Shown here piece after piece: positions 871 to 13,116 of a stretch of DNA of 64,000 bases. Both the position numbers and the translations under genes were made by a program. How positions within the stretch are numbered: the stretch's first letter is position 1; every line of letters begins with the position of its first letter. Under the pieces are notes generated by a model. The model ran no database searches and was not told the DNA's origin. It saw only the letters and a program-made list of their open reading frames with translations. The stretch lies in the NCBI RefSeq assembly GCF_055900595.2, contig NZ_CM148325.1; one strand, written 5' to 3'.

Positions 871-936
871 GCGGGATGCCGTAAAGTTTTACCGCGGTGA
901 TTAATGATGTGAAGTCAATCCAAATCAACGGAGATC
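871..936 (+). repeat. Conserved leader element copy 1 (core gattaatgatgtgaa...tcaacggagatc) immediately upstream of a Rep-like gene
   Basis: Near-identical ~60-bp element recurs at 6625..6686; both end with ...caacggagatc 7-30 nt before a Rep-like start. Confidence 0.6.
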
Positions 937-943
937 TCTCATC

Positions 944-1675
944 ATGAATCAACCAATACACAATGCTTACTGGTTATCCCGTTTTGACAGCCTTCTCGAC
1001 AGTGCCCTGGTGCAGCACCGTGCCGTCTCGTTAATTCGGGTGGATTTACGTTTTCCTGAGTATATGCCTGCCACTATTATGGATACCGATTTAGATTCAG
1101 CAGTGATTTCTCGTTTTTTCGAATCCCTGAAAGCAAAAATTCAGGCTTACCAGCGGAAAAAACGACGTGCCAACAAGCGTGTGCATGCAACCACTCTGCG
1201 TTATTTCTGGTGTCGGGAGTTTGGCAAGGAAAAAGGCAGGAAACATTATCACGTGATATTACTGCTCAACAAAGATACCTGGTGCTCGCCAGGGGATTTC
1301 ACCGTTCCTTCTTCGCTGGCGACGCTGATCAAGCTGGCATGGTGTAGCGCTCTGCATCTTGAGCCCTGGCAGGGTAATGGACTGGTTCATTTTTCCAGGC
1401 GGGCGCCTTTCCGTAAACCGACATCATCTGATGCTCGCCCTTCTTCCGATGATACGCCTTTGTCGGGTGGATGTTCTGATACCCGGAAAGCTTCTGACAA
1501 AAAATCTGGTGGATCCGCTGTGCTCTGGGTCAAGCGTGGTGATGTGGAAGCGATGCAGAAAGCCATGGAGAGAGCCTGTTATCTCGTGAAGTATGAGACG
1601 AAGCAGCATGACGGTTCTGGTCAACGTAATTATGGTTGCAGTCGTGGGCCGGGGCGTTTACTGGATGGCAGGTGA
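944..1675 (+). CDS. Rep-like protein (YfjJ/YagK 'inovirus Gp2'-type), HUH motif
   Basis: 243-aa ORF; motif KHYHVILLL (His-hydrophobic-His) and downstream Tyr/Lys patch YLVKYETK; N-terminus LIRVDLRFPE shared with paralogs at 6028 and 6841. Confidence 0.55.
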   Translation: MNQPIHNAYWLSRFDSLLDSALVQHRAVSLIRVDLRFPEYMPATIMDTDLDSAVISRFFESLKAKIQAYQRKKRRANKRVHATTLRYFWCREFGKEKGRKHYHVILLLNKDTWCSPGDFTVPSSLATLIKLAWCSALHLEPWQGNGLVHFSRRAPFRKPTSSDARPSSDDTPLSGGCSDTRKASDKKSGGSAVLWVKRGDVEAMQKAMERACYLVKYETKQHDGSGQRNYGCSRGPGRLLDGR

Positions 1676-1739: not shown

Positions 1740-2425
<686 letters not shown>

Positions 2426-2858: not shown

Positions 2859-4463
2859 ATGAATCCCGATTATGTGCAATCCTTGCAGACATCCCACCAC
2901 TTCCCAGCTGATTTAACCTACAGATTATTTCCTAGTGAGCTTGCGTATCTCATTGACGACTTATATGAAAGTACCCAACTTCCGTTGGAGCTCATTTTTA
3001 ATACTGTACTGGCAACGCTCTCACTCTCCTGTCAGTCATTGGTTGACGTTGTTCATCCTCACACCAACATGCCGGAACCCTGCTCACTTTATCTGTTGGC
3101 AATCGCAGAGCCAGGCGCGGGAAAAACAACGATAAACAGACTGGTGATGAACCCCTGTTACGAATTTGCCGATCGACTCATTCAACAATACGAAGAGAGA
3201 AACAAAGATTATAAGACTGAACTACAGATCTGGAATACCCGGCAGAAAGCGCTTGCTGCCAATTTAAGAAAGGTTGTTAACCGGGGGTATCCGGGGGAAC
3301 AGGAAGAAGAGGCGCTGCGTAATCACGAAAGAAATAAACCGACACGTCCGGTTCGACCGAATTTTATCTATGAAGATGTTTCGCTTAAAGCGCTTGTGGA
3401 AGGGCTCAATGAACATCCTGAGGCAGGGGTTATTTCTGATGAGGCGGTCACTTTTTTCAGAAGCTATCTGAAAAATTATCCGGGCCTGTTGAATAAAGCA
3501 TGGAGTGGGCAACCGTTTGATTTTGGACGGGCTGACGAGAAATACCATATCGCGCCACGTCTGACATTTTCGTTAATGTCTCAGCCGGATGTCTTTACGA
3601 ATTATATAAATAAAAATGACGTACTGGCGTGGGGAAGCGGATTTCTTTCCCGGTTTCTGTTCAGTCAGGTTGTAAGTTCTTCCTGGATACGTGATTATAC
3701 GAGAGGTGAGTTCAGAACAATATCAACCCTGGAGAACTTTCATAAAAAGATTAACGGATTCCTGTTAAACCACAACATTAATTTCCCCGGCATGAGCACC
3801 GAAAGGAAGACATTAAAACTTGCGAAGAAAGCGTTGGGGGAGTGGCAGGAAAACCAGATTAAGATTGAAAGAAAAGCGCTTGCAGGCGGGGAGTGGGAAC
3901 ACATCAGAGATATTGTTCTGAAAGCAGGCTCTAATATACTGAGGATAGCTGGAATATTCACCTGCTATTGCTATAAAGATGCTGAGGAAATTGAATCAAT
4001 TACGCTTTTTAAAGCTATGCATCTCATGGACTGGTATCTGGAGGAGGCGAGCACAATATTTTATCCCATGTCTGCACGATGCCAGTTTGAACAGGATGCC
4101 TGTGAACTGTATGCATGGATTATGACCCGAATAAGGCAGAATAATTGGCGTGCTATCAGGAAAACAGACATTGAAAGATATGGTCCCAATCGACTGAGAA
4201 GAGCAGAAAAACTTACACCTGTACTCAATCAGTTAATCTGTCAGGGGTATTTATGTATCATCAGAATGCGATCGCATCAGGCACTTTATGTTTCTGTTTA
4301 TTGTAACAATGGTTACCTCCTTCCTTTAGGCGCAATGTATTACGAACAGTTTGATATTGTTCTACCCGAGAATATTCATAAAGCGAAAGCATATCACGTT
4401 AATATTCCACCGGAATTAATTCCGTCATTTGCGTCACCTTTTTCAGAGTATAGCTTATTTTGA
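2859..4463 (+). CDS. P-loop NTPase, YfjI-like (DUF3987-type) satellite/prophage replication-associated protein
   Basis: Walker A AIAEPGAGKTT; ATG at 2859 preceded by GAAGGAGG Shine-Dalgarno; the track ORF from 2577 is an unsupported upstream extension. Confidence 0.5.
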   Translation: MNPDYVQSLQTSHHFPADLTYRLFPSELAYLIDDLYESTQLPLELIFNTVLATLSLSCQSLVDVVHPHTNMPEPCSLYLLAIAEPGAGKTTINRLVMNPCYEFADRLIQQYEERNKDYKTELQIWNTRQKALAANLRKVVNRGYPGEQEEEALRNHERNKPTRPVRPNFIYEDVSLKALVEGLNEHPEAGVISDEAVTFFRSYLKNYPGLLNKAWSGQPFDFGRADEKYHIAPRLTFSLMSQPDVFTNYINKNDVLAWGSGFLSRFLFSQVVSSSWIRDYTRGEFRTISTLENFHKKINGFLLNHNINFPGMSTERKTLKLAKKALGEWQENQIKIERKALAGGEWEHIRDIVLKAGSNILRIAGIFTCYCYKDAEEIESITLFKAMHLMDWYLEEASTIFYPMSARCQFEQDACELYAWIMTRIRQNNWRAIRKTDIERYGPNRLRRAEKLTPVLNQLICQGYLCIIRMRSHQALYVSVYCNNGYLLPLGAMYYEQFDIVLPENIHKAKAYHVNIPPELIPSFASPFSEYSLF

Positions 4464-6027
4464 AATAACCTTACACAGATAAAACAAAATCAACCAACCT
4501 TCATTCGGAGGTTGGTGATAAGGCGTTTTGCATATCCTGCACCTATGCAAATGTTCACCAATTATGGGGGGTGAATGAGAATTTCTCTGAAAAAACCGCT
4601 ACGGTAGCAACAGTAGCAGCACATGCACCACATCTGTGATTTAATTTTGTTTTCATAATGACCTGCTGTCAGAGCTGGTTGAATACAGGAGTGTGCGCAC
4701 TGGTGGAAGCATGGCTTTCGTTTTTTTATTGATCGAAAGTGAATCGAAAGATTATTTTTAACATAGATTAAAGCTAATCATTAACCATATTGTGTGAGTT
4801 TTCATATATAACTTCGTTTGATTTTTGTCGTGATGAGTGCAGGTGTATATGATAATGTTGGTCTCTGCCTGAATAACGAATGGTTATCACTGTTACTGAA
4901 AAGAGATGCTGTTCAAGTTTGCATTTCAATAGGAGAGTGAAGAAAAATGATTTGATATTTTTTTCTGTAAGATAATGGTTTGTCATGTTCGTATTCAGAA
5001 CGGATGATTTCTTATTTTTACTCATCAAACATGGATAATTTTAATTTAGGTTTATTACTATAATTAGTATCTACCCCTTTATTTATCATCCATCTCTGCC
5101 CTTCATTTTCCCTCTCTGTCTTTACACATTCCATTACTCTTATTCTCATCCAGTTATATTCACTCCCTTCCTTGTCTAATCTGCATTGTCACCATTATCA
5201 TGGTATCCACCTTCTCCATTCCTCAATCATAACTACTGTAACTCATATGATACTCAGATAAGTTATTCTCTACTACGCTATTGCTGATATCCATCTGTTC
5301 CTGTTTTCAGTAAAATAATAATTTATTTTAATTTTATCTATCATGAGCTGTATTTGCTTAACAATGATTGTTTATCTGATATGTTTTAACCATTCCGGTA
5401 AATATCAATACTTCTGTCATCACTGATTAACTGAATGTTTACTCTTTGATAAGGTGTCCATGATTTCGTCATGTTTAACAGTGCAGGATAAACAATGAAA
5501 TTAACAGAGTGAATTCCTGATTATGTTTTTTTCGGGTTGTATTGTTTAAGATGCAGGGTAAAAATCATGCCAGTGGTATTTTTTACTCTGGTAATGTGTG
5601 CGGTTAACGTTCATGTCCTTAAGAACAGATTGGATGAGGGCGTATAAGTTTATTGTGTTGGCCTTGTATACGTTTTTTTTAGAACCACTGAGAGCAAGTT
5701 TGTAGTTTATGATGTTATTGGTCGTAATATGTTTCTTGAACTTCTGGTCGTGGGTTTTTATCGCGTGTTTTGCAGTATTTTGTGATGTTTATTGATTCTG
5801 TATTTTATTCGCTCCTCGTTTATCTCATCTCTTTAGCTAATACCATCAGATAATCCATTTATTTCTGCACAACGCTACGTGTCGTTAATAACCGACGTAT
5901 CCATTCTGTTACAGCATGCCTGATAAATACCGTCTGTAAGTTATTACCGTTTTAGATCTGATTATGAGCGAAAGCATTAATTCGTTTACAGCACTTAAAA
6001 CGTCATTAACTTTCAGGAGTCATCAGC

Positions 6028-6594
6028 ATGCCTAAATCTTACACACCAAACTGGTTTTTTACCGCTTTACTTGACAATCACATCAATCAAATGATGGCAC
6101 GCTATTCCTGCCTGCGGGCCTTACGCATGGATTTCTTCTACAGGAAAGATACGCCTGATTTCTTACAACCTGATCATCGCTGGCTTGAATTGCAGTTGCG
6201 TATGCTGCTGGAGCAGGTGGAACAATTTGAAAATATCGTTGGCTTCTTCTGGGTGATTGAATGGACGGCTGATCATGGTTTTCATGCGCATGCGGTTTTC
6301 TGGATCGATCGTCAGAGGGTTAAAAAAATATATCCCTTTGCGGAGCGGATTACGGAATGCTGGCGGTCTATTACGCATAACAGTGGTTCGGCACACCGCT
6401 GTACATATCAGCCGCATTATACATACAACATCAACATTCCTGTGCGCCACAACGATCCTGAAAGCATCGATAATATTCGCGGTGCCCTGCATTATCTGGC
6501 GAAAGAAGAACAAAAAGACGGGCTGTGTGCCTACGGCTGCAATGAAGTTCCTGAACGTCCTGCTGCAGGGCGTCCTCGTAAGCCTCACTTCTGA
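6028..6594 (+). CDS. Rep-like protein paralog, HUH motif
   Basis: 188 aa; motif GFHAHAVFWI and Tyr/Lys patch LHYLAKEEQK; N-terminal LRALRMDFFYRKD parallels ORF 944; SD caggag upstream. Confidence 0.5.
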   Translation: MPKSYTPNWFFTALLDNHINQMMARYSCLRALRMDFFYRKDTPDFLQPDHRWLELQLRMLLEQVEQFENIVGFFWVIEWTADHGFHAHAVFWIDRQRVKKIYPFAERITECWRSITHNSGSAHRCTYQPHYTYNINIPVRHNDPESIDNIRGALHYLAKEEQKDGLCAYGCNEVPERPAAGRPRKPHF

Positions 6595-6624
6595 AGCTTA
6601 AGGCCTGAGCCTCCGCTCCTGGAA

Positions 6625-6686
6625 ACACTCCGTCGGTAAAACCTTACCGCCTTGATTAATGATGTGAACTGAAGTCAACGGAGATC
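6625..6686 (+). repeat. Conserved leader element copy 2
   Basis: ggtaaaaccttaccgccttgattaatgatgtgaactgaagtcaacggagatc vs cgtaaagttttaccgcggtgattaatgatgtgaagtcaa...caacggagatc at 871..936. Confidence 0.6.
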
Positions 6687-6840
6687 ATTCACCCTGAACC
6701 TGCATCCGGTGTTCTGTCCCTTATCTTCCCGTTCTGCTTCAGTTCTTCACTTATTCCATCAATCTCATCCGCAAGCCATAACACGTCAGCTCATTCACGG
6801 GCAGGACGCATTGTGGGCTGCGCATAACGGAACATATCTT

Positions 6841-7416
6841 ATGAATGCTATTCCTTATTTCGACTATAGCCTGGCACCCTTCTGGCCATCTTATCAGAAC
6901 AAAGTCATCGGCGTCCTTGAGCGTGCGCTGCGTGAGCAGTCCGGCTCACGGATACGGCGGATCCTGCTTCGTCTGCCGTGGGAACATGACAACGCCTTCA
7001 ACAGCAGACAGACCTGGTTTGGTATGGATTTTATCGAAACCGTCAGTGCGCTGATGAATGCGAAACCCGGACGCGACCTTTGCTGGCTCCTGACCCGTCA
7101 TCCGGAAAAGCCGGAATACCACGTGGTGCTGTGCGTCAGACAGGAGTATTTCGACGGCCCCGAACTGGACCGGCTGATTCTGGATGCCTGGAGCAACGTA
7201 CTGGGCTTCGCGTCACCGGGGGAAGCGGCACCGTACCAGAAACAGATAACCCGGGATGTGGTGCTGGACAGTCGTTCACCGGACTGCGAAGACATCCTCA
7301 AAGATTTGATCTGGGCGTTCAGTGATTTCGCCCGCGATCGTCGTGGTGTGTGCGATCCGGAAGCCCGTTGCCTCGCCGGTAATCCCGGCTATCCCGGATC
7401 TGCAGGACCGTTCTGA
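6841..7416 (+). CDS. Rep-like protein paralog with degenerate HUH motif
   Basis: Internal Met of track ORF 6709..7416; MNAIPYFDYSL...RRILLRLPWEHDN...PEYHVVLCV aligns with the other two paralogs, but the first His of the motif is replaced by Glu. Confidence 0.45.
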   Translation: MNAIPYFDYSLAPFWPSYQNKVIGVLERALREQSGSRIRRILLRLPWEHDNAFNSRQTWFGMDFIETVSALMNAKPGRDLCWLLTRHPEKPEYHVVLCVRQEYFDGPELDRLILDAWSNVLGFASPGEAAPYQKQITRDVVLDSRSPDCEDILKDLIWAFSDFARDRRGVCDPEARCLAGNPGYPGSAGPF

Positions 7417-7484: not shown

Positions 7485-7721
7485 ATGTTGACCTCAATGA
7501 CAGGCCACGACTGCGTGTTGCTGCGTGCCGACGATCCCCTGATCGACATGAACTACATCACCAGTTTCACCGGTATGACAGATAAATGGTTTTACAAGCT
7601 GATCAGTGAAGGCCATTTCCCGAAACCCATCAAGCTGGGCCGCAGCAGCCGCTGGTACAAAAGTGAAGTGGAGCAGTGGATGCAGCAGCGAATTGAGGAA
7701 TCACGAGGAGCAGCAGCATGA
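7485..7721 (+). CDS. AlpA-family phage/island transcriptional regulator (HTH); true start may be the internal Met near 7550
   Basis: C-terminal FTGMTDKWFYKLISEGHFPKPIKLGRSSRWYKSEVEQWM matches the AlpA/Vis-type HTH pattern. Confidence 0.6.
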   Translation: MLTSMTGHDCVLLRADDPLIDMNYITSFTGMTDKWFYKLISEGHFPKPIKLGRSSRWYKSEVEQWMQQRIEESRGAAA

Positions 7722-8512: not shown

Positions 8513-9523
8513 ACAGCGCTGTTGTGCAGTCAACGAGGTTTTCTGTCTTTTCGTCGGTCATTCAGCATCATTAAACGGGTCTCTGCCTCTTTCTGTTCCT
8601 GTGGTGTCACTTCCCCGCACGGCTGACCGTTCAGGTTGTAACGGGCGCCACCTGCTATTAACGCACGGTAATAGCGCGGAGACTGCACATAAGACGCCAC
8701 TGCTGCATGTAATGTACCAGCGCCAAACGCCAGTTCTCGGATGGCGATATCCTGTATCAGGTCGTCAGGTATCCCCACTTTAAGTGGTTTTGTTTTTTTC
8801 CCGGTTGAATGACTCAGGCCAGAGTTCCACAAGACGAATAATGCGCTTACGGTTTTTGCTCTGGCGTTTTGTCATGTCGCCACGGTGTTTTATCAGCAGG
8901 TTTCTGTTTATCGTTCAACTGTGGTATCTGGTCACCGGCCTTCATTTTGTATGCTGTGTCCGTTTTATTCTGCAGCGGCGTTGCCGGTGATTTACTGAAA
9001 ATACCCTGCGGTTTACGGTTAATGGTCAGAGTTACCATCAATTTTGTTACCTCGCGCTGTCAATGGAAGTAGTACCTCATCCGATATCTGAAAATGTTTT
9101 CCGGTGGATGTTACAGCGAATTTCATGTAAGACATGTTGTTGTCGGTATTGTTCAGTACTGTGCGTTGTGAGCGTATTCGTTATCAGACAGAGGGGCAGG
9201 GAACAAACGTCAGAGGTTAAGGATATCCGGGAACAAATGGCGTAAACGGACATCTCAGTGCCTGAGAAACAGTACAGGTCAGGCCATCATGGCCTGCAAA
9301 CAGAGCCCTGGCGACCCCGTGGCCGAAAACGAAACAATAACCCGCGCGCAGTGCGAGGAATCCGGATGTGAAGCAATCAGCAGGTAATATTAATGGCAGG
9401 ACCAGCAGGTTCTTTAAACAAACGAACATGCTGTAATTGATATTTTGCTTATTGTATTTTCTTTTTAGTTATTAAATTAATTTATTTACGAAAAATTTTC
9501 TGCAGATACAGGATGGGAATTCA

Positions 9524-11727: not shown

Positions 11728-13116
11728 ATGTTTATCCTTGAAACGCTGAATTTTGTTGTTGATATACTTAAAGTGCCCGCGATACTGGTCGGCTTGATTG
11801 CCTTAATTGGTCTGGTTGCCCAGAAAAAATCTTTTTCAGATGTTGTTAAAGGTACAATTAAAACTATTCTCGGCTTTATTGTACTGGGCGGTGGTGCCAC
11901 TGTTTTGGTTGGTTCGTTAAATCCTCTTGGGAGTATGTTTGAACATGCCTTTAATATTCAGGGCATCATTCCGAATAATGAGGCTATTGTTTCTATTGCG
12001 CTGGAAAAATATGGCGCATCGACGGCCCTTATTATGGCATTTGGTATGGTGGCGAATATTATTGTTGCCCGCTTTACCCGCCTTAAATATATCTTCCTGA
12101 CCGGACACCACACATTTTACATGGCCTGCATGATTGGTGTGATTCTGACAGTGGCTGGTTTTGAAGGTATATCACTGGTCTTTACCGGTTCTCTTATTCT
12201 GGGACTTGTGATGGCATTTTTCCCGGCATTAGCACAACGCTATATGAAGCGTATTACGGGGAATGATGACATTGCTTTTGGTCACTTTGGCACTCTGGGA
12301 TATGTACTTTCTGGCTGGATTGGCAGCGTGTGCGGTAAAGGTTCCCGCTCCACCGAAGAGATGAATTTGCCCAAAAATCTGAGCTTCCTGCGCGACAGTT
12401 CCATCTCTATTTCTCTTACGATGATGGTGATTTATCTGATCATGGCGATCAGTGCTGGTCGTGAGTTCGTTGAAAGCCAGTTCAGTGGTGGTCAAAACTA
12501 CCTTGTCTACGCCATCATAATGGCCATCACCTTCGCTGCTGGTGTATTTATTATTCTGCAAGGCGTGCGTTTAATCCTTGCTGAAATAGTTCCGGCATTT
12601 ACCGGGTTTTCAGAAAAGCTGGTGCCGAATGCCCGTCCGGCCCTCGATTGCCCGGTTGTGTATCCGTATGCGCCAAACGCAGTGTTAGTTGGTTTCTTGT
12701 TTAGCTTTTTTGGCGGTCTGGTAGGGCTATTTTTGTTGGGACAGATGAAACTGGTGTTGATTCTTCCGGGTGTCGTTCCTCACTTTTTTACCGGGGCGGC
12801 TGCTGGCGTATTTGGTAACGCTACGGGGGGACGTCGTGGCGCAATGATTGGTGCTTTTGCGAATGGCTTATTGATTACCTTCCTGCCAGTACTGTTATTG
12901 CCGGTTCTTGGGGCGATAGGCTTTGCTAATACGACCTTTTCCGATGCAGATTTTGGTGCTGTCGGCATCGTCCTCGGAAACCTGGCACGTTATCTCTCAC
13001 CTTTTGCCATCACCGGACTTGTAGTAGCGCTATTTGTGCTGCTGGTTGCCTGGAACATTTTCGCCAGTAACAAAATCGCTGCCAAAGCGCAGAAGAAGAG
13101 TGGAGCCAAATCATGA
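11728..13116 (+). CDS. PTS EIIC permease (UlaA/SgaT ascorbate family)
   Basis: About 460-aa polytopic membrane protein; ATG at 11728 after GAGGTGG Shine-Dalgarno. Confidence 0.8.
   Translation: MFILETLNFVVDILKVPAILVGLIALIGLVAQKKSFSDVVKGTIKTILGFIVLGGGATVLVGSLNPLGSMFEHAFNIQGIIPNNEAIVSIALEKYGASTALIMAFGMVANIIVARFTRLKYIFLTGHHTFYMACMIGVILTVAGFEGISLVFTGSLILGLVMAFFPALAQRYMKRITGNDDIAFGHFGTLGYVLSGWIGSVCGKGSRSTEEMNLPKNLSFLRDSSISISLTMMVIYLIMAISAGREFVESQFSGGQNYLVYAIIMAITFAAGVFIILQGVRLILAEIVPAFTGFSEKLVPNARPALDCPVVYPYAPNAVLVGFLFSFFGGLVGLFLLGQMKLVLILPGVVPHFFTGAAAGVFGNATGGRRGAMIGAFANGLLITFLPVLLLPVLGAIGFANTTFSDADFGAVGIVLGNLARYLSPFAITGLVVALFVLLVAWNIFASNKIAAKAQKKSGAKS

Follow-up and report, generated by a model that had tools for sequence, protein, structure and literature searches.

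A conserved non-coding element repeated 5′ of the Gp2 genes of an E. coli island family is a candidate DNA-level control site

Introduction

A Gp2-AlpA gene pair is conserved at the core of many genomic islands with a tyrosine integrase, a large class to which the pathogenicity islands of E. coli, the SRL island of Shigella and the tmRNA islands of Pseudomonas belong (PMC6980539; bioRxiv 10.1101/2024.08.29.610337). A literature search found no functional study of YfjJ, YagK or Gp2. In a stretch of 64,000 nucleotides (the window; RefSeq assembly GCF_055900595.2, contig NZ_CM148325.1), a preliminary description pointed to a conserved sequence of ~60 bp before two Rep-like genes and proposed that it was a nick site or origin, a shared operator or a translational leader. 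Its motif strings were found in no paper in a full-text literature search.

Several described systems resemble this element in part. In circovirus, geminivirus and CRESS-DNA origins, as here, a stem-loop followed by short direct repeats lies before an HUH rep-like gene. Rep in these systems also represses its own promoter, and by analogy one site could here serve both recognition and autoregulation. Their loop, however, is conserved, 9–13 nt long and carries the nick, whereas here it has 4 nt and is variable; the element also differs in its weak repeats, its chromosomal location, its two to three copies per island and its presence before a catalytically dead paralogue. At IS200/IS605 ends, same-strand subterminal hairpins flank an HUH transposase gene. 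There and in REP/RAYT systems the enzyme is a Y1 TnpA, whereas the proteins here are of the YagK_YfjJ_C/REP_ORF2-G2P type. The double-strand origins (dso) of rolling-circle plasmids and the phiX174/P2-type phage origins stand, like the element, beside a rep-like gene and contain a conserved A/T-rich tract, and its two direct copies could in principle be initiation and termination sites. Duplicated promoter-operators of paralogous genes share with it a dyad with fixed half-sites and a free centre before presumably co-regulated genes, and a purifying selection stronger than that on coding sequence. Finally, the traJ leader of F-like plasmids, with FinP and FinO, recalls copy 1 in that a stem-loop contains the ribosome-binding region and the island also carries a gene of the FinO/ProQ family.

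Results

Copies and Anatomy of the Element

The repeated element is non-coding and ~65–80 bp long. A small palindrome comes first, then an invariant A/T-rich box, and last a tail that resembles a ribosome-binding site. The features of the window that concern it are as follows.

879..943, plus strand: copy 1, with palindrome, A/T-rich box, TSAAN-like short units and GGAG, ending at the Gp2-1 ATG
879..894, no strand: copy 1 palindrome/hairpin, CCGTAAAGTTTTACCG, core GTAA-N4-TTAC
898..913, plus strand: A/T-rich box, TGATTAATGATGTGAA, a 16-nt exact match to copy 2
904..945, plus strand: hairpin of copy 1 only, AUGAUG:CAUCAU, enclosing the Shine-Dalgarno (SD) sequence and the first two start-codon bases
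925..936, plus strand: 3′ tail of copy 1, TCAACGGAGATC, in which GGAG (930–933) is the SD of Gp2-1, 10 nt before the ATG
944..1675, plus strand: Gp2-1, 243 aa, YagK/YfjJ ("inovirus Gp2") family, motifs HYHVILLL and YLVKYETK
5930..5968, plus strand: copy 3, partial and diverged, CCGTCTGTAAGTTATTACCG, then 8 nt, then CTGATTATGAG
6028..6594, plus strand: Gp2-2, 188 aa, YagK/YfjJ domain, motifs HAHAVFWI and HYLAKEEQK
6620..6699, plus strand: conserved block of copy 2; the portion homologous to copy 1 is 6630–6699
6634..6649, no strand: copy 2 perfect palindrome, CGGTAAaaccTTACCG
6653..6686, plus strand: copy 2 box and tail, TGATTAATGATGTGAA, CTGAAG, TCAACGGAGATC, with one 5-nt unit fewer than copy 1
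6841..7416, plus strand: Gp2-3, 191 aa, highly diverged YagK/YfjJ-like, E. coli-restricted
7485..7721, plus strand: AlpA-family small HTH/excisionase-like regulator, 78 aa, directly after Gp2-3

Both copies noted in the preliminary description were confirmed and its quoted strings were correct. By our own count, 42 of the 52 bases aligned within the quoted text are equal (~81%), with one 5-nt indel and exact shared runs of 16 and 12 nt. The ends given there, 936 and 6686, were also right; the starts lay about 9–10 nt too far 5′, the quoted text beginning at 880 and 6635. GATTAATGATGTGAA is exact at 899–913 and 6654–6668, and none of 100 shuffles gave three matches; a third match at 22854, with 2 mismatches, falls within an autotransporter ORF and was dismissed as chance. 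TCAACGGAGATC is exact at both 925–936 and 6675–6686. A profile search with nhmmer detected exactly two full copies per island locus (E about 1e-20), and in both the homology continues for 55 nt beyond the hairpin on its 3′ side, unlike what is expected of the left and right ends of IS200/IS605-type transposons. A further, partial copy is absent from the preliminary description, which named two only. This copy 3 (CCGTCTGTAAgttaTTACCG...CTGATTATGAG) starts 98 nt and ends 60 nt 5′ of the Gp2-2 ATG, equals copy 2 at 15 of 15 specified bases of the search pattern in its first 20 positions and is kept in 26 metagenome contigs.

The dyad spans 16 bp, (C)NGTAA-N4-TTACCG with a core CGGTAA-N4-TTACCG. 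Its half-sites are fixed and its centre varies freely (agtt, aacc, aaac, aaat, gtta), the central 4 nt of copy 2 being aacc, aaac or aaat according to lineage. The copy 1 palindrome has a single C.C mismatch, where loci L014 and L015 have a G-C pair; changes in the arms (CGGTAA/TTACCG) are never compensated (C.C, T.C, G.T, A.C). A hairpin with a 4–6 bp stem is present in all copies, and the element varies most in the CTTGAT-like tract beside the stem (GGTGAT, GTTGAT, GGCGAT, CTTGCT, CCTGCT). By our own estimate from base frequencies, GTAA-N4-TTAC is expected about once in the window and occurs five times. The extended dyad pattern matched without mismatch at 5930 and 6630 and five times with ≤3 mismatches, a number reached in 0 of 100 shuffles. 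The dyads at 879, 5934 and 6634 precede the three Gp2 genes. Fixed half-sites, a variable centre and recurrence before presumably co-regulated genes, sequence marks of a palindromic operator, are found here.

The box TGATTAATGATGTGAA begins four bases past the dyad, and (A/C)ATGATGTGAA is constant in all full copy-1 and copy-2 variants seen. Within it, a -10-like hexamer, (A/C)ATGAT, is invariant across copies 1 and 2 (AATGAT at 903–908); by eye, its counterpart in copy 3 is GATTAT. TSAAN-like 5-nt units follow, four in copy 1 and three in copy 2, and then CAACGGAG(ATC). The run reads TGATG-TGAAG-TCAAT-CCAAA-TCAAC in copy 1 and TGATG-TGAAC-TGAAG-TCAAC in copy 2, the indel being one unit. The period-5 signal is weak (p = 0.023 and 0.074, before correction for 8 periods), and TRF calls no tandem repeats at the element. 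In copy 2 the tail is followed by no start codon.

Gp2 Genes and Island Context

The evidence indicates an HUH-nuclease fold for Gp2-1, its catalytic residues being conserved. Its predicted model shows this fold and is structurally nearest to viral HUH origin-binding nucleases, and H101, H103, E92, Y213 and K216 are invariant in 16 homologues, the least similar being 42% identical; replication-initiator families gave weak matches as well. Gp2-2, whose assignment draws in part on RefSeq annotation of identical or near-identical loci, has HAH and YLAK. While Gp2-1 has both the motif and the fold of the HUH superfamily, Gp2-3 lacks the motif: it has EYH for HUH, no Tyr motif and no Pfam match, and its hhalign probability is only 84%. 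Of the two Rep-like paralogs between which copy 2 had been placed, the downstream one is this degenerate homologue. The Gp2 proteins can scarcely be aligned with one another (23% over 75 aa, E 0.008), and many Gp2-1 genes are frameshifted or pseudogenes across genomes.

A Rep-like gene had been described as lying immediately downstream of each copy. This is true of copy 1, where the quoted sequence ends 8 nt before the ATG at 944. Copy 2, by contrast, lies 42 nt past the Gp2-2 stop and 154 nt before the Gp2-3 ATG (range 154–190 nt), and the spacer to Gp2-3 is non-coding and differs between island lineages. In the common arrangement, Gp2-1 is followed by a terminator-like hairpin (11 bp, 7 GC) and then by copy 2, an order that suggests that copy 2 heads a Gp2-3-alpA unit. 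The cargo between copies varies; here it comprises an IS remnant, a YfjI helicase and Gp2-2, and in locus L002 a restriction enzyme.

Distribution

Of 5,426 complete E. coli genomes, about 1,900 (~35%) carry the element, at about 5,000 places altogether, and two same-strand copies bracket Gp2-1 in 1,742 genomes. All 40 copy-1 matches in a spread sample overlie a Gp2 gene, and all copy-2 loci opened belong to the same island. Among the matches listed, the association with these genes is exclusive, and the scatter over random positions unrelated to Rep-like genes that would have spoken against the preliminary description is not seen. Nor does the element behave as a transposon end inserted in many unrelated contexts: unlike IS200/IS605, it keeps a constant place in one island family, and the inspected loci and the 40 copy-1 matches show no new contexts. 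The copy-2 block is a joint between exchangeable flanks: left and right sides that are not homologous reassort there, in all four combinations.

Outside this family, a Providencia-type island has an identical 13-nt core, GTAAAGTTTTACC, between its alpA and a Gp2 only ~40% identical. The element is absent from K-12 yfjJ/yagK and from distant Gp2 loci (Brenneria, a Logan metagenome locus and a P0092-type locus), and the dyad from two other distant island types. Phages gave no match and plasmid records only 5, and an IMG/VR search with Gp2-1 returned nothing. A scan of GTDB species representatives with GATTAATGATGTGN{4,24}CAACGGAG returned one E. coli-like MAG; this pattern proved too narrow, as the variants GCTTAATG and GATGAATG also occur. 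The metagenome scan yielded only copies near-identical to those of E. coli. In one low-quality contig, copy 2 had been lost via a microhomology deletion.

Selective Constraint

Across 13 loci, the nucleotide diversity of copy 1 is 0.022, compared with 0.12 at third and 0.047 at second codon positions of Gp2-1 and 0.21 upstream. For copy 2 it is 0.08; the spacer reaches 0.24 and the third codon positions of Gp2-3 reach 0.28. Both blocks are 3–5 fold less diverse than neighboring third codon positions and also lie below second positions; the conservation of copy 1 continues for ~30 nt into the coding region. The element is real and under selection, and the proposal of non-coding DNA conserved at the nucleotide level and tied to Rep-like genes is borne out by these diversities and by the genome matches.

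These values bear directly on the view that the element is a functionless relic of a duplication or gene conversion of the Gp2 leader, its apparent conservation arising from the youth of the islands or from homology-patch recombination between island modules. Such a view would accommodate the narrow, essentially E. coli distribution, with its single GTDB MAG and near-identical metagenome copies, the microhomology loss of copy 2, the recombination joint at the copy-2 block and the likeness of copy 2 to a dead gene start (an SD-like GGAG, with CTG or TTA at the ATG position). It would leave unexplained a diversity below that of second codon positions. Moreover, the differences between copies 1 and 2 persist from lineage to lineage, so the copies are not being made uniform by gene conversion, and the older third copy and the Providencia-type match point to long-term retention. 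We regard a relic as highly improbable.

RNA Structure, Promoters and Small ORFs

When the region 845–960 around copy 1 was folded, a minimum free energy of -34.9 kcal/mol was obtained (z = -2.6), and the hairpin concealing the SD and AUG was found in copy 1 only. No structure is shared: RNAalifold gave -2.78 kcal/mol and 0 covarying pairs over 12 distinct copies, and Rfam returned nothing at gathering thresholds, only chance-level eukaryotic families at E >= 0.3. The suggestion of a translational leader common to both copies is disfavored by this lack of shared structure and covariation and by the missing start codon of copy 2.

An RNA-level role in a wider sense would have the element act in the mRNA, whether as an operator of translation, as a site for processing or stability, or by being targeted by an RNA chaperone or a trans-acting RNA, with copy 1 controlling Gp2-1 translation directly. 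Copy 1 does hold the SD and adjoin the AUG, its hairpin would occlude both, and conservation runs on into the ORF. Two arm variants are G.U-compatible (TTACTG in locus L018, and UUCAU opposite GUGAA), ACGGA fits CsrA sites of the form A(N)GGA, and a ProQ/FinO-family RNA-chaperone gene lies close by in the island; in the window its FinO-like ORF (8530–8832) encodes 100 aa, against 159 aa in related loci. Against this, the copy types have no consensus structure or covariation and no Rfam match, copy 2 stands 154–190 nt from Gp2-3, in some lineages its 3′ arm, TTCAC, has mutated or been lost, and copy 3 and the Providencia-type site retain only the dyad and a short A/T-rich stretch. An antisense (minus-strand) promoter was not detected, nor was complementary sequence elsewhere in the window; here the element departs from traJ/FinP/FinO, as it does in copy 2, which does not share the stem-loop of copy 1. 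An RNA leader is, in our judgment, quite unlikely.

A consensus sigma-70 promoter, with -35 and -10 hexamers 16–18 bp apart, was not detected by scans at or near any copy; the -35 position lies within the dyad and is unlike TTGACA. The lack of a recognisable -35 and an SD-like sequence conserved, though unused, in copy 2 set the element apart from duplicated promoter-operators. By eye, nothing fits sigma-54, sigma-32, sigma-28 or sigma-E promoters. An antisense match in copy 1, TTGATT-17-ATTAAT, is destroyed by the 5-nt indel of copy 2. Sites for DnaA, IHF, LexA (CTGT-N8-ACAG) and TyrR (TGTAAA-N6-TTTACA) misfit in spacing or sequence, as do the P4 alpha iterons (TGTTCACC). The starts, stops and frames of small ORFs (10 codons ending in TGA at 898–900, and a ATGATGTGA mini-ORF) vary by lineage, and those of an N-terminal extension of Gp2-3 from CTG 6694 are not kept across lineages. 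For a nut-like boxA with hairpin, the boxA-like sequence (CGCTCCTG / TGCTCAAT) differs by lineage, and a long-range CUCCGU/ACGGAG pairing of copy 2 is missing in copy 1. A Q-like antitermination by AlpA at an ABE was likewise rejected: in Pseudomonas AlpA the DNA-contact residues reach position 142 and the ABE is GGGACG (PMC9371919), whereas the present AlpA has 78 aa and this ABE is absent here.

A Nick Site or Origin

The HUH fold of Gp2-1, with its invariant H-x-H, Glu and Tyr and its weak matches to replication initiators, raises the question of whether a Rep protein recognises and nicks the element, making it a rolling-circle origin or terminus, or an oriT-like site. An HUH Gp2 would then bind the hairpin of the plus strand and cleave a single-stranded box 3′ of it, and two direct copies around Gp2-1 and its cargo would initiate and terminate, releasing a circular single strand. 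A small hairpin, a conserved A/T-rich tract able to become single-stranded and an adjoining rep gene are the general format of HUH substrates; the same-strand copy pair around Gp2-1, the variable cargo between copies and the reassortment joint at the copy-2 block would also agree with this. Moreover, CCTTGATTAAT in copy 2 resembles the phiX174/pC194 nick region, CTTG|ATA(TTAAT), and YLVKYETK of Gp2-1 is similar to YVAKYVNK of phiX gpA. The former likeness, however, lies where the element is least conserved, a difference from rolling-circle origins, and the dyad arms show no compensatory change. Single-stranded DNA folding of copy 1 is unremarkable (z = -0.5). Copies 1 and 3 stand beside a catalytically competent Rep-like gene, but a copy also precedes Gp2-3, which is without catalytic residues; the site is missing at K-12 yfjJ/yagK and at distant Gp2 loci, and Gp2-1 is often a pseudogene. 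Nor were the expected products seen: a deletion hybrid (copy-1 left, copy-2 right) was found in 0 of 5,426 genomes at >=80% query coverage, and a full-length circle junction or tandem hybrid in none of the best-ranked places; with these queries no copy 1/copy 2 recombinant junction (ori-ter product) came to light in the genomes searched. In our judgment, a nick site is unlikely.

A more specific form of this idea is that the stretch from copy 1 to copy 2 is a rolling-circle-excisable cassette within E. coli pathogenicity-island backbones. It measures about 0.93 kb in its basic form and 5.8–7.6 kb with cargo, which may be a restriction enzyme, a YfjI helicase or Gp2-2. We consider such a cassette very unlikely.

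Discussion

Among leader, nick or origin and operator, a shared operator-like site fits best. With a probability of roughly 0.4, the element may be a cis-acting DNA recognition/control module at the 5′ end of each Gp2 transcription unit in the regulatory core of a P4/CP4-like E. coli island. A DNA-binding protein encoded by the island would recognise dyad and box in every copy. An HUH-fold Gp2, either the active Gp2-1 or Gp2-2 or the catalytically degenerate Gp2-3, is the most plausible candidate, and AlpA is another. Binding would co-ordinate the expression of Gp2-1, Gp2-2 and the Gp2-3-alpA unit, perhaps in a manner resembling Rep autoregulation at the stem-loop/iteron sites of circoviruses and geminiviruses. 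The 3′ part of copy 1 would double as the Gp2-1 ribosome-binding site, and on transcripts from further upstream it may fold onto the box, hiding the SD and AUG.

One architecture recurs at three sites of the window, each 5′ of a Gp2 paralogue, and its core reappears between Gp2 and alpA in the Providencia-type relative. The element is ~81% identical between copies even though the Gp2 proteins can hardly be aligned, and it is far less diverse than its surroundings (0.022 against 0.12 for copy 1, 0.08 against 0.24–0.28 for copy 2). Fixed half-sites, a free centre and uncompensated arm changes form an operator-like pattern, and the lack of a shared RNA fold, of covarying pairs and of Rfam matches agrees with a role at the DNA level. 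The invariant (A/C)ATGAT of copies 1 and 2, the position of copy 2 behind a terminator-like hairpin and the exclusive island association (40/40 copy-1 matches over Gp2) also argue for a DNA-level control module.

Other observations fit a control module less well. No consensus sigma-70 promoter accompanies the copies, and the sequence at -35, within the dyad, is unlike TTGACA. A fixed stem with a variable loop would suit a hairpin of single-stranded DNA or RNA equally well. A pure operator leaves unexplained why CAACGGAG is kept in copy 2, where no start codon follows, and the ~30 nt of coding-region conservation after copy 1 suggest that RNA or the initiation of translation also plays a part. 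The signal of a 5-nt period is weak (p = 0.02 and 0.07 without correction for the 8 periods, with no TRF call), the proposed binder may often be missing where Gp2-1 is frameshifted, and two other distant island types are without the dyad.

The element is a short, strongly constrained and unannotated piece of DNA that accompanies each Gp2 paralogue and is a candidate Gp2 substrate or operator. If it controls Gp2-3-alpA, it would lie at the switch for island excision and induction in ~35% of E. coli genomes. Were it instead a nick site, these islands would hold an unrecognised rolling-circle module. An excisable cassette, if real, would explain why the copy-2 block is the joint of reassorting non-homologous flanks, and would represent an unrecognised mobile sub-element and a route for cargo shuffling between islands.

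Organization of the Repeated Element

The window represents a genomic island of E. coli, of the CP4/P4-like "pathogenicity-island backbone" type, and contains three genes of the YagK/YfjJ ("inovirus Gp2") family, each preceded by a copy of a non-coding repeat.

Element copies and neighboring genes in the window
879-943: copy 1, with its dyad (a small palindrome) at 879-894, CCGTAAAGTTTTACCG
944-1675: Gp2-1, 243 aa; Pfam YagK_YfjJ_C 1.6e-36, REP_ORF2-G2P 3e-7
about 1769-2425, minus strand: IS110-family remnant
2859-4463: YfjI/DUF3987 helicase gene
5930-5968: diverged copy 3, ending 60 nt before Gp2-2; CCGTCTGTAAgttaTTACCG, 8 nt, then CTGATTATGAG
6028-6594: Gp2-2, 188 aa; YagK/YfjJ-domain or inovirus-type Gp2 protein in RefSeq, with motifs HAH and YLAK
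6630-6699: copy 2 (conserved block 6620-6699), with its dyad at 6634-6649, CGGTAAaaccTTACCG
6841-7416: Gp2-3, 191 aa; E. coli-restricted, YagK/YfjJ-like, highly diverged

The repeat is real and under selection. A preliminary description had placed near-identical copies before two Rep-like genes. Both strings it quoted are present and its ends (936 and 6686) are right, but its starts (871 and 6625) lie 9–10 nt 5′ of the true first bases of those strings (880 and 6635); copy 3, before Gp2-2, went unreported. GATTAATGATGTGAA occurs exactly at 899-913 and 6654-6668, and TCAACGGAGATC at 925-936 and 6675-6686. Over the quoted span, counted on the pairwise alignment, copies 1 and 2 are identical at 42 of 52 aligned bases, with one 5-nt indel. 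The first 20 positions of copy 3 agree with copy 2 at 15/15 specified positions of the pattern CCGTCNGTAANNNNTTACCG, and no shuffled window attained the observed count of matches to this pattern. An all-variant profile finds exactly two full copies per island locus (E about 1e-20), with no further match in the 64 kb. Allowing ≤2 mismatches, GATTAATGATGTGAA has one further match, at 22854 within an autotransporter ORF, which is a chance occurrence. The sequence from about 22500-23300 and beyond codes for this large autotransporter; in matching E. coli records the region is annotated as an S6-family peptidase (Tsh/Hbp-type SPATE) and also as a YadA-like adhesin, and IS66 elements lie close by. 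Database and literature searches found no annotation of or publication on the element.

Copies 1 and 2 share a four-part layout: the dyad, the box TGATTAATGATGTGAA after 3–4 variable bases, short TSAAN-like units and CAACGGAGATC. The units read TGATG-TGAAG-TCAAT-CCAAA-TCAAC in copy 1 and TGATG-TGAAC-TGAAG-TCAAC in copy 2; comparison of the two series shows that the indel equals one unit. The Shine-Dalgarno sequence of Gp2-1, GGAG at 930-933, lies inside copy 1. Where copy 1 has the Gp2-1 ATG, copy 2 has CTG (TTA in other lineages). A non-coding spacer of 154–190 nt, wholly different from one island lineage to another, separates it from the ATG at 6841. The invariant box also contains a two-codon mini-ORF, ATG ATG TGA (904-912), which is probably not translated, since the GGTGA 3 nt 5′ of it is found in copy 1 only.

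Distribution and Island Context

Among 5,426 complete E. coli genomes, copy 1 was found at 2,496 places in 1,872 genomes and the copy-2 region at 2,499 places in 1,876. A chimeric query for both types gave 4,993 places (1,905 genomes), in agreement with the sum of the separate counts. The proposed tie to Rep-like genes holds, and the repeat was not found at random sites away from them: copy 1 matches overlie a Gp2 gene in 40 of 40 rows of a spread sample, and every copy-2 locus opened lies between Gp2-1 or Gp2-2 and Gp2-3. Among plasmid records, five in all carry the element; a phage search found none that does, and the K-12 genes yfjJ and yagK are without it. Metagenomes and a set with one genome per species, scanned with sequence patterns, yielded E. 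coli-like sequence only. Loci of Gp2 homologues at about 40% identity also lack the element, barring one Providencia-type island (L011 4617-4633; Gp2 about 40% identical). Here the interval from the Gp2 stop to alpA contains the 13-mer GTAAAGTTTTACC, which is identical to the core of the copy-1 dyad, and the sequence 3′ of the 13-mer is weakly alignable to copy 3 (TGAGCG..ATTAA).

Genes annotated as reading leftward encode a GTPase, DUF905, DUF932, an antirestriction protein, a RadC-like protein and CbtA/YeeU. In island order, a 0.9–1.5 kb AT-rich, ORF-poor stretch is followed by copy 1, Gp2-1, optional cargo, copy 2, Gp2-3, AlpA, UCP030791 and a ProQ/FinO-like gene. The commonest form (1,742 genomes) has copy 1, Gp2-1, a terminator-like hairpin and copy 2 within about 1 kb; in comparison locus L001 the hairpin lies 40 nt past the Gp2-1 stop (12856-12883; GGTAAGGGCG..CGCCCTTACC then TTGTATTCTG). 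In the window it is replaced (about 1676-1730) by the IS110 remnant and then the helicase gene, which together with Gp2-2 are inserted ahead of copy 2. GTPase–Gp2–AlpA–DUF3987 synteny reaches Providencia-type and other Enterobacterales islands, and a Gp2–AlpA pair has been reported as a core both in Pseudomonas islands (bioRxiv 10.1101/2024.08.29.610337) and in the Shigella SRL island (PMC6980539).

The AT-rich, ORF-poor stretches of the window, 1-870 (37% GC) before Gp2-1 and 4464-5925 (34.6% GC) before Gp2-2, compare with 48% overall and show no homology to each other. Degenerate direct repeats in 1-870 (TGGTYCTGGTGTTTT..TCAG at 381, 454, 658 and 704; GATGATTTTGT at 318 and 343) could be iterons or part of an H-NS-silenced control region. 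Downstream of alpA and UCP030791 lie ORFs at 8530-8832 (minus) and 8847-9041 (minus). The former belongs to the ProQ/FinO family of RNA chaperones (ProQ 5.7e-11, FinO 1.9e-10); it has 100 aa, against 159 aa in related loci, and is annotated as frameshifted in another genome.

Constraint on the Element and Divergence of the Proteins

Nucleotide diversity
Copy 1 (13 loci): 0.022
Gp2-1 second codon positions: 0.047
Gp2-1 third codon positions: 0.12
100 nt upstream of copy 1: 0.21
Copy-2 block (9 loci): 0.08
Spacer after copy 2: 0.24
Gp2-3 third codon positions: 0.28

Variation is concentrated in the 4-nt dyad center and the 5–6 nt following the dyad, while (A/C)ATGATGTGAA and GTCAA(C/T)GGAG are essentially invariant. 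The differences that distinguish copies 1 and 2 are stable over lineages, so their similarity does not stem from ongoing gene conversion.

Five residues of Gp2-1 (H101, H103, E92, Y213 and K216) are invariant in 16 homologues with identity down to 42%, and the protein has weak PHROG matches to phage replication-initiator families. Gp2-3, always followed by an AlpA-family gene, has no Pfam match and aligns to the family by profile-profile comparison only (84% probability, E 7e-6). EYH replaces the HUH nuclease motif and the Tyr motif is missing, so Gp2-3 probably has no nuclease activity; it may be a derivative that binds DNA but no longer cuts it. The three proteins are almost unalignable, the best pair showing 23% identity over 75 aa. 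This divergence of paralogous proteins almost beyond recognition indicates that the element is constrained in its own right. That it is a functionless relic or a recombination patch seems improbable.

Possible Recognition as DNA or RNA

The preliminary description suggested folding the element. In copy 1, 904-909 can pair with 940-945 in an mRNA hairpin that buries the Shine-Dalgarno sequence and AUG (z = −2.6). Copy 2 is without the partner strand, and a consensus fold computed from 12 distinct copies (−2.8 kcal/mol) has no covarying pair. Changes in the arms are never compensated (C.C, T.C, G.T and A.C are seen), and an Rfam search of the element gave no match. An RNA leader is an unlikely explanation. 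The sole Rfam match in the window is an ALIL pseudoknot, an IS3-family frameshift signal, at 27647-27710 (minus; 51.3 bits). The copies have their primary sequence in common, together with a dyad whose half-sites are fixed in sequence. This favors a protein that recognizes duplex DNA or an extruded hairpin over a shared RNA structure.

A scan for consensus sigma-70 promoters found none at any copy. All copies keep A2 and T6 of a −10-like hexamer (AATGAT or CATGAT; GATTAT in copy 3) 8–10 bp past the dyad, which, judged by eye, would place the dyad roughly at the −35 position. Copy 2 lies directly 3′ of the Gp2-1 terminator-like hairpin and is the sole conserved sequence ahead of Gp2-3–alpA.

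A Possible Nick Site

In format the element is analogous to the substrates of HUH nucleases: next to an HUH gene, a hairpin is followed by an A/T-rich tract that could become single-stranded, and two direct copies flank Gp2-1 and its cargo. The copy-2 block (6620-6699) joins non-homologous flanks. In a comparison of 69 loci, its left types (a/b; terminator side or Gp2-2 end) are found in all four pairings with the right types (1/2; spacer types), with counts of 5, 14, 45 and 3, indicating that recombination has occurred inside these 80 bp. However, a search of 5,426 genomes found no deletion hybrid, and the best-ranked places included no junction hybrid. The CTTGAT-like tract, which resembles the phiX174 and pC194 origins, varies more than any other part of the element; the 5-nt periodicity of the units is only nominally significant, and TRF reports no tandem repeats. 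Furthermore, one copy precedes the presumably catalytically dead Gp2-3, and many E. coli Gp2-1 genes (P0043, P0064, P0077; L017 15931-16663) either have a frameshift in the low-complexity insert, which gives 214-aa products, or carry a pseudogene annotation, with the element upstream intact. A Rep nick or origin site is unlikely, if somewhat less so than a leader. One metagenome contig (L019, about 3560-3640) has lost the entire copy-2 block through a deletion that ran from one CCTGAA/TCTGAA microhomology to the other; the contig is rich in apparent frameshifts and its assembly quality is doubtful.

The reading we tentatively prefer, at a probability of roughly 0.4, is a shared DNA-level recognition and control module. 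Gp2-family proteins would plausibly bind it at the head of each Gp2 transcription unit, and copy 1 would double as the translation-initiation region of Gp2-1. A single site has more than one role in the origins of CRESS-DNA viruses, and by analogy the element could combine control, nick/origin and leader functions. Narrow in phylogenetic range and putative in function, the element nevertheless provides a concrete candidate DNA partner for the uncharacterised, widespread Gp2/YagK/YfjJ HUH proteins.
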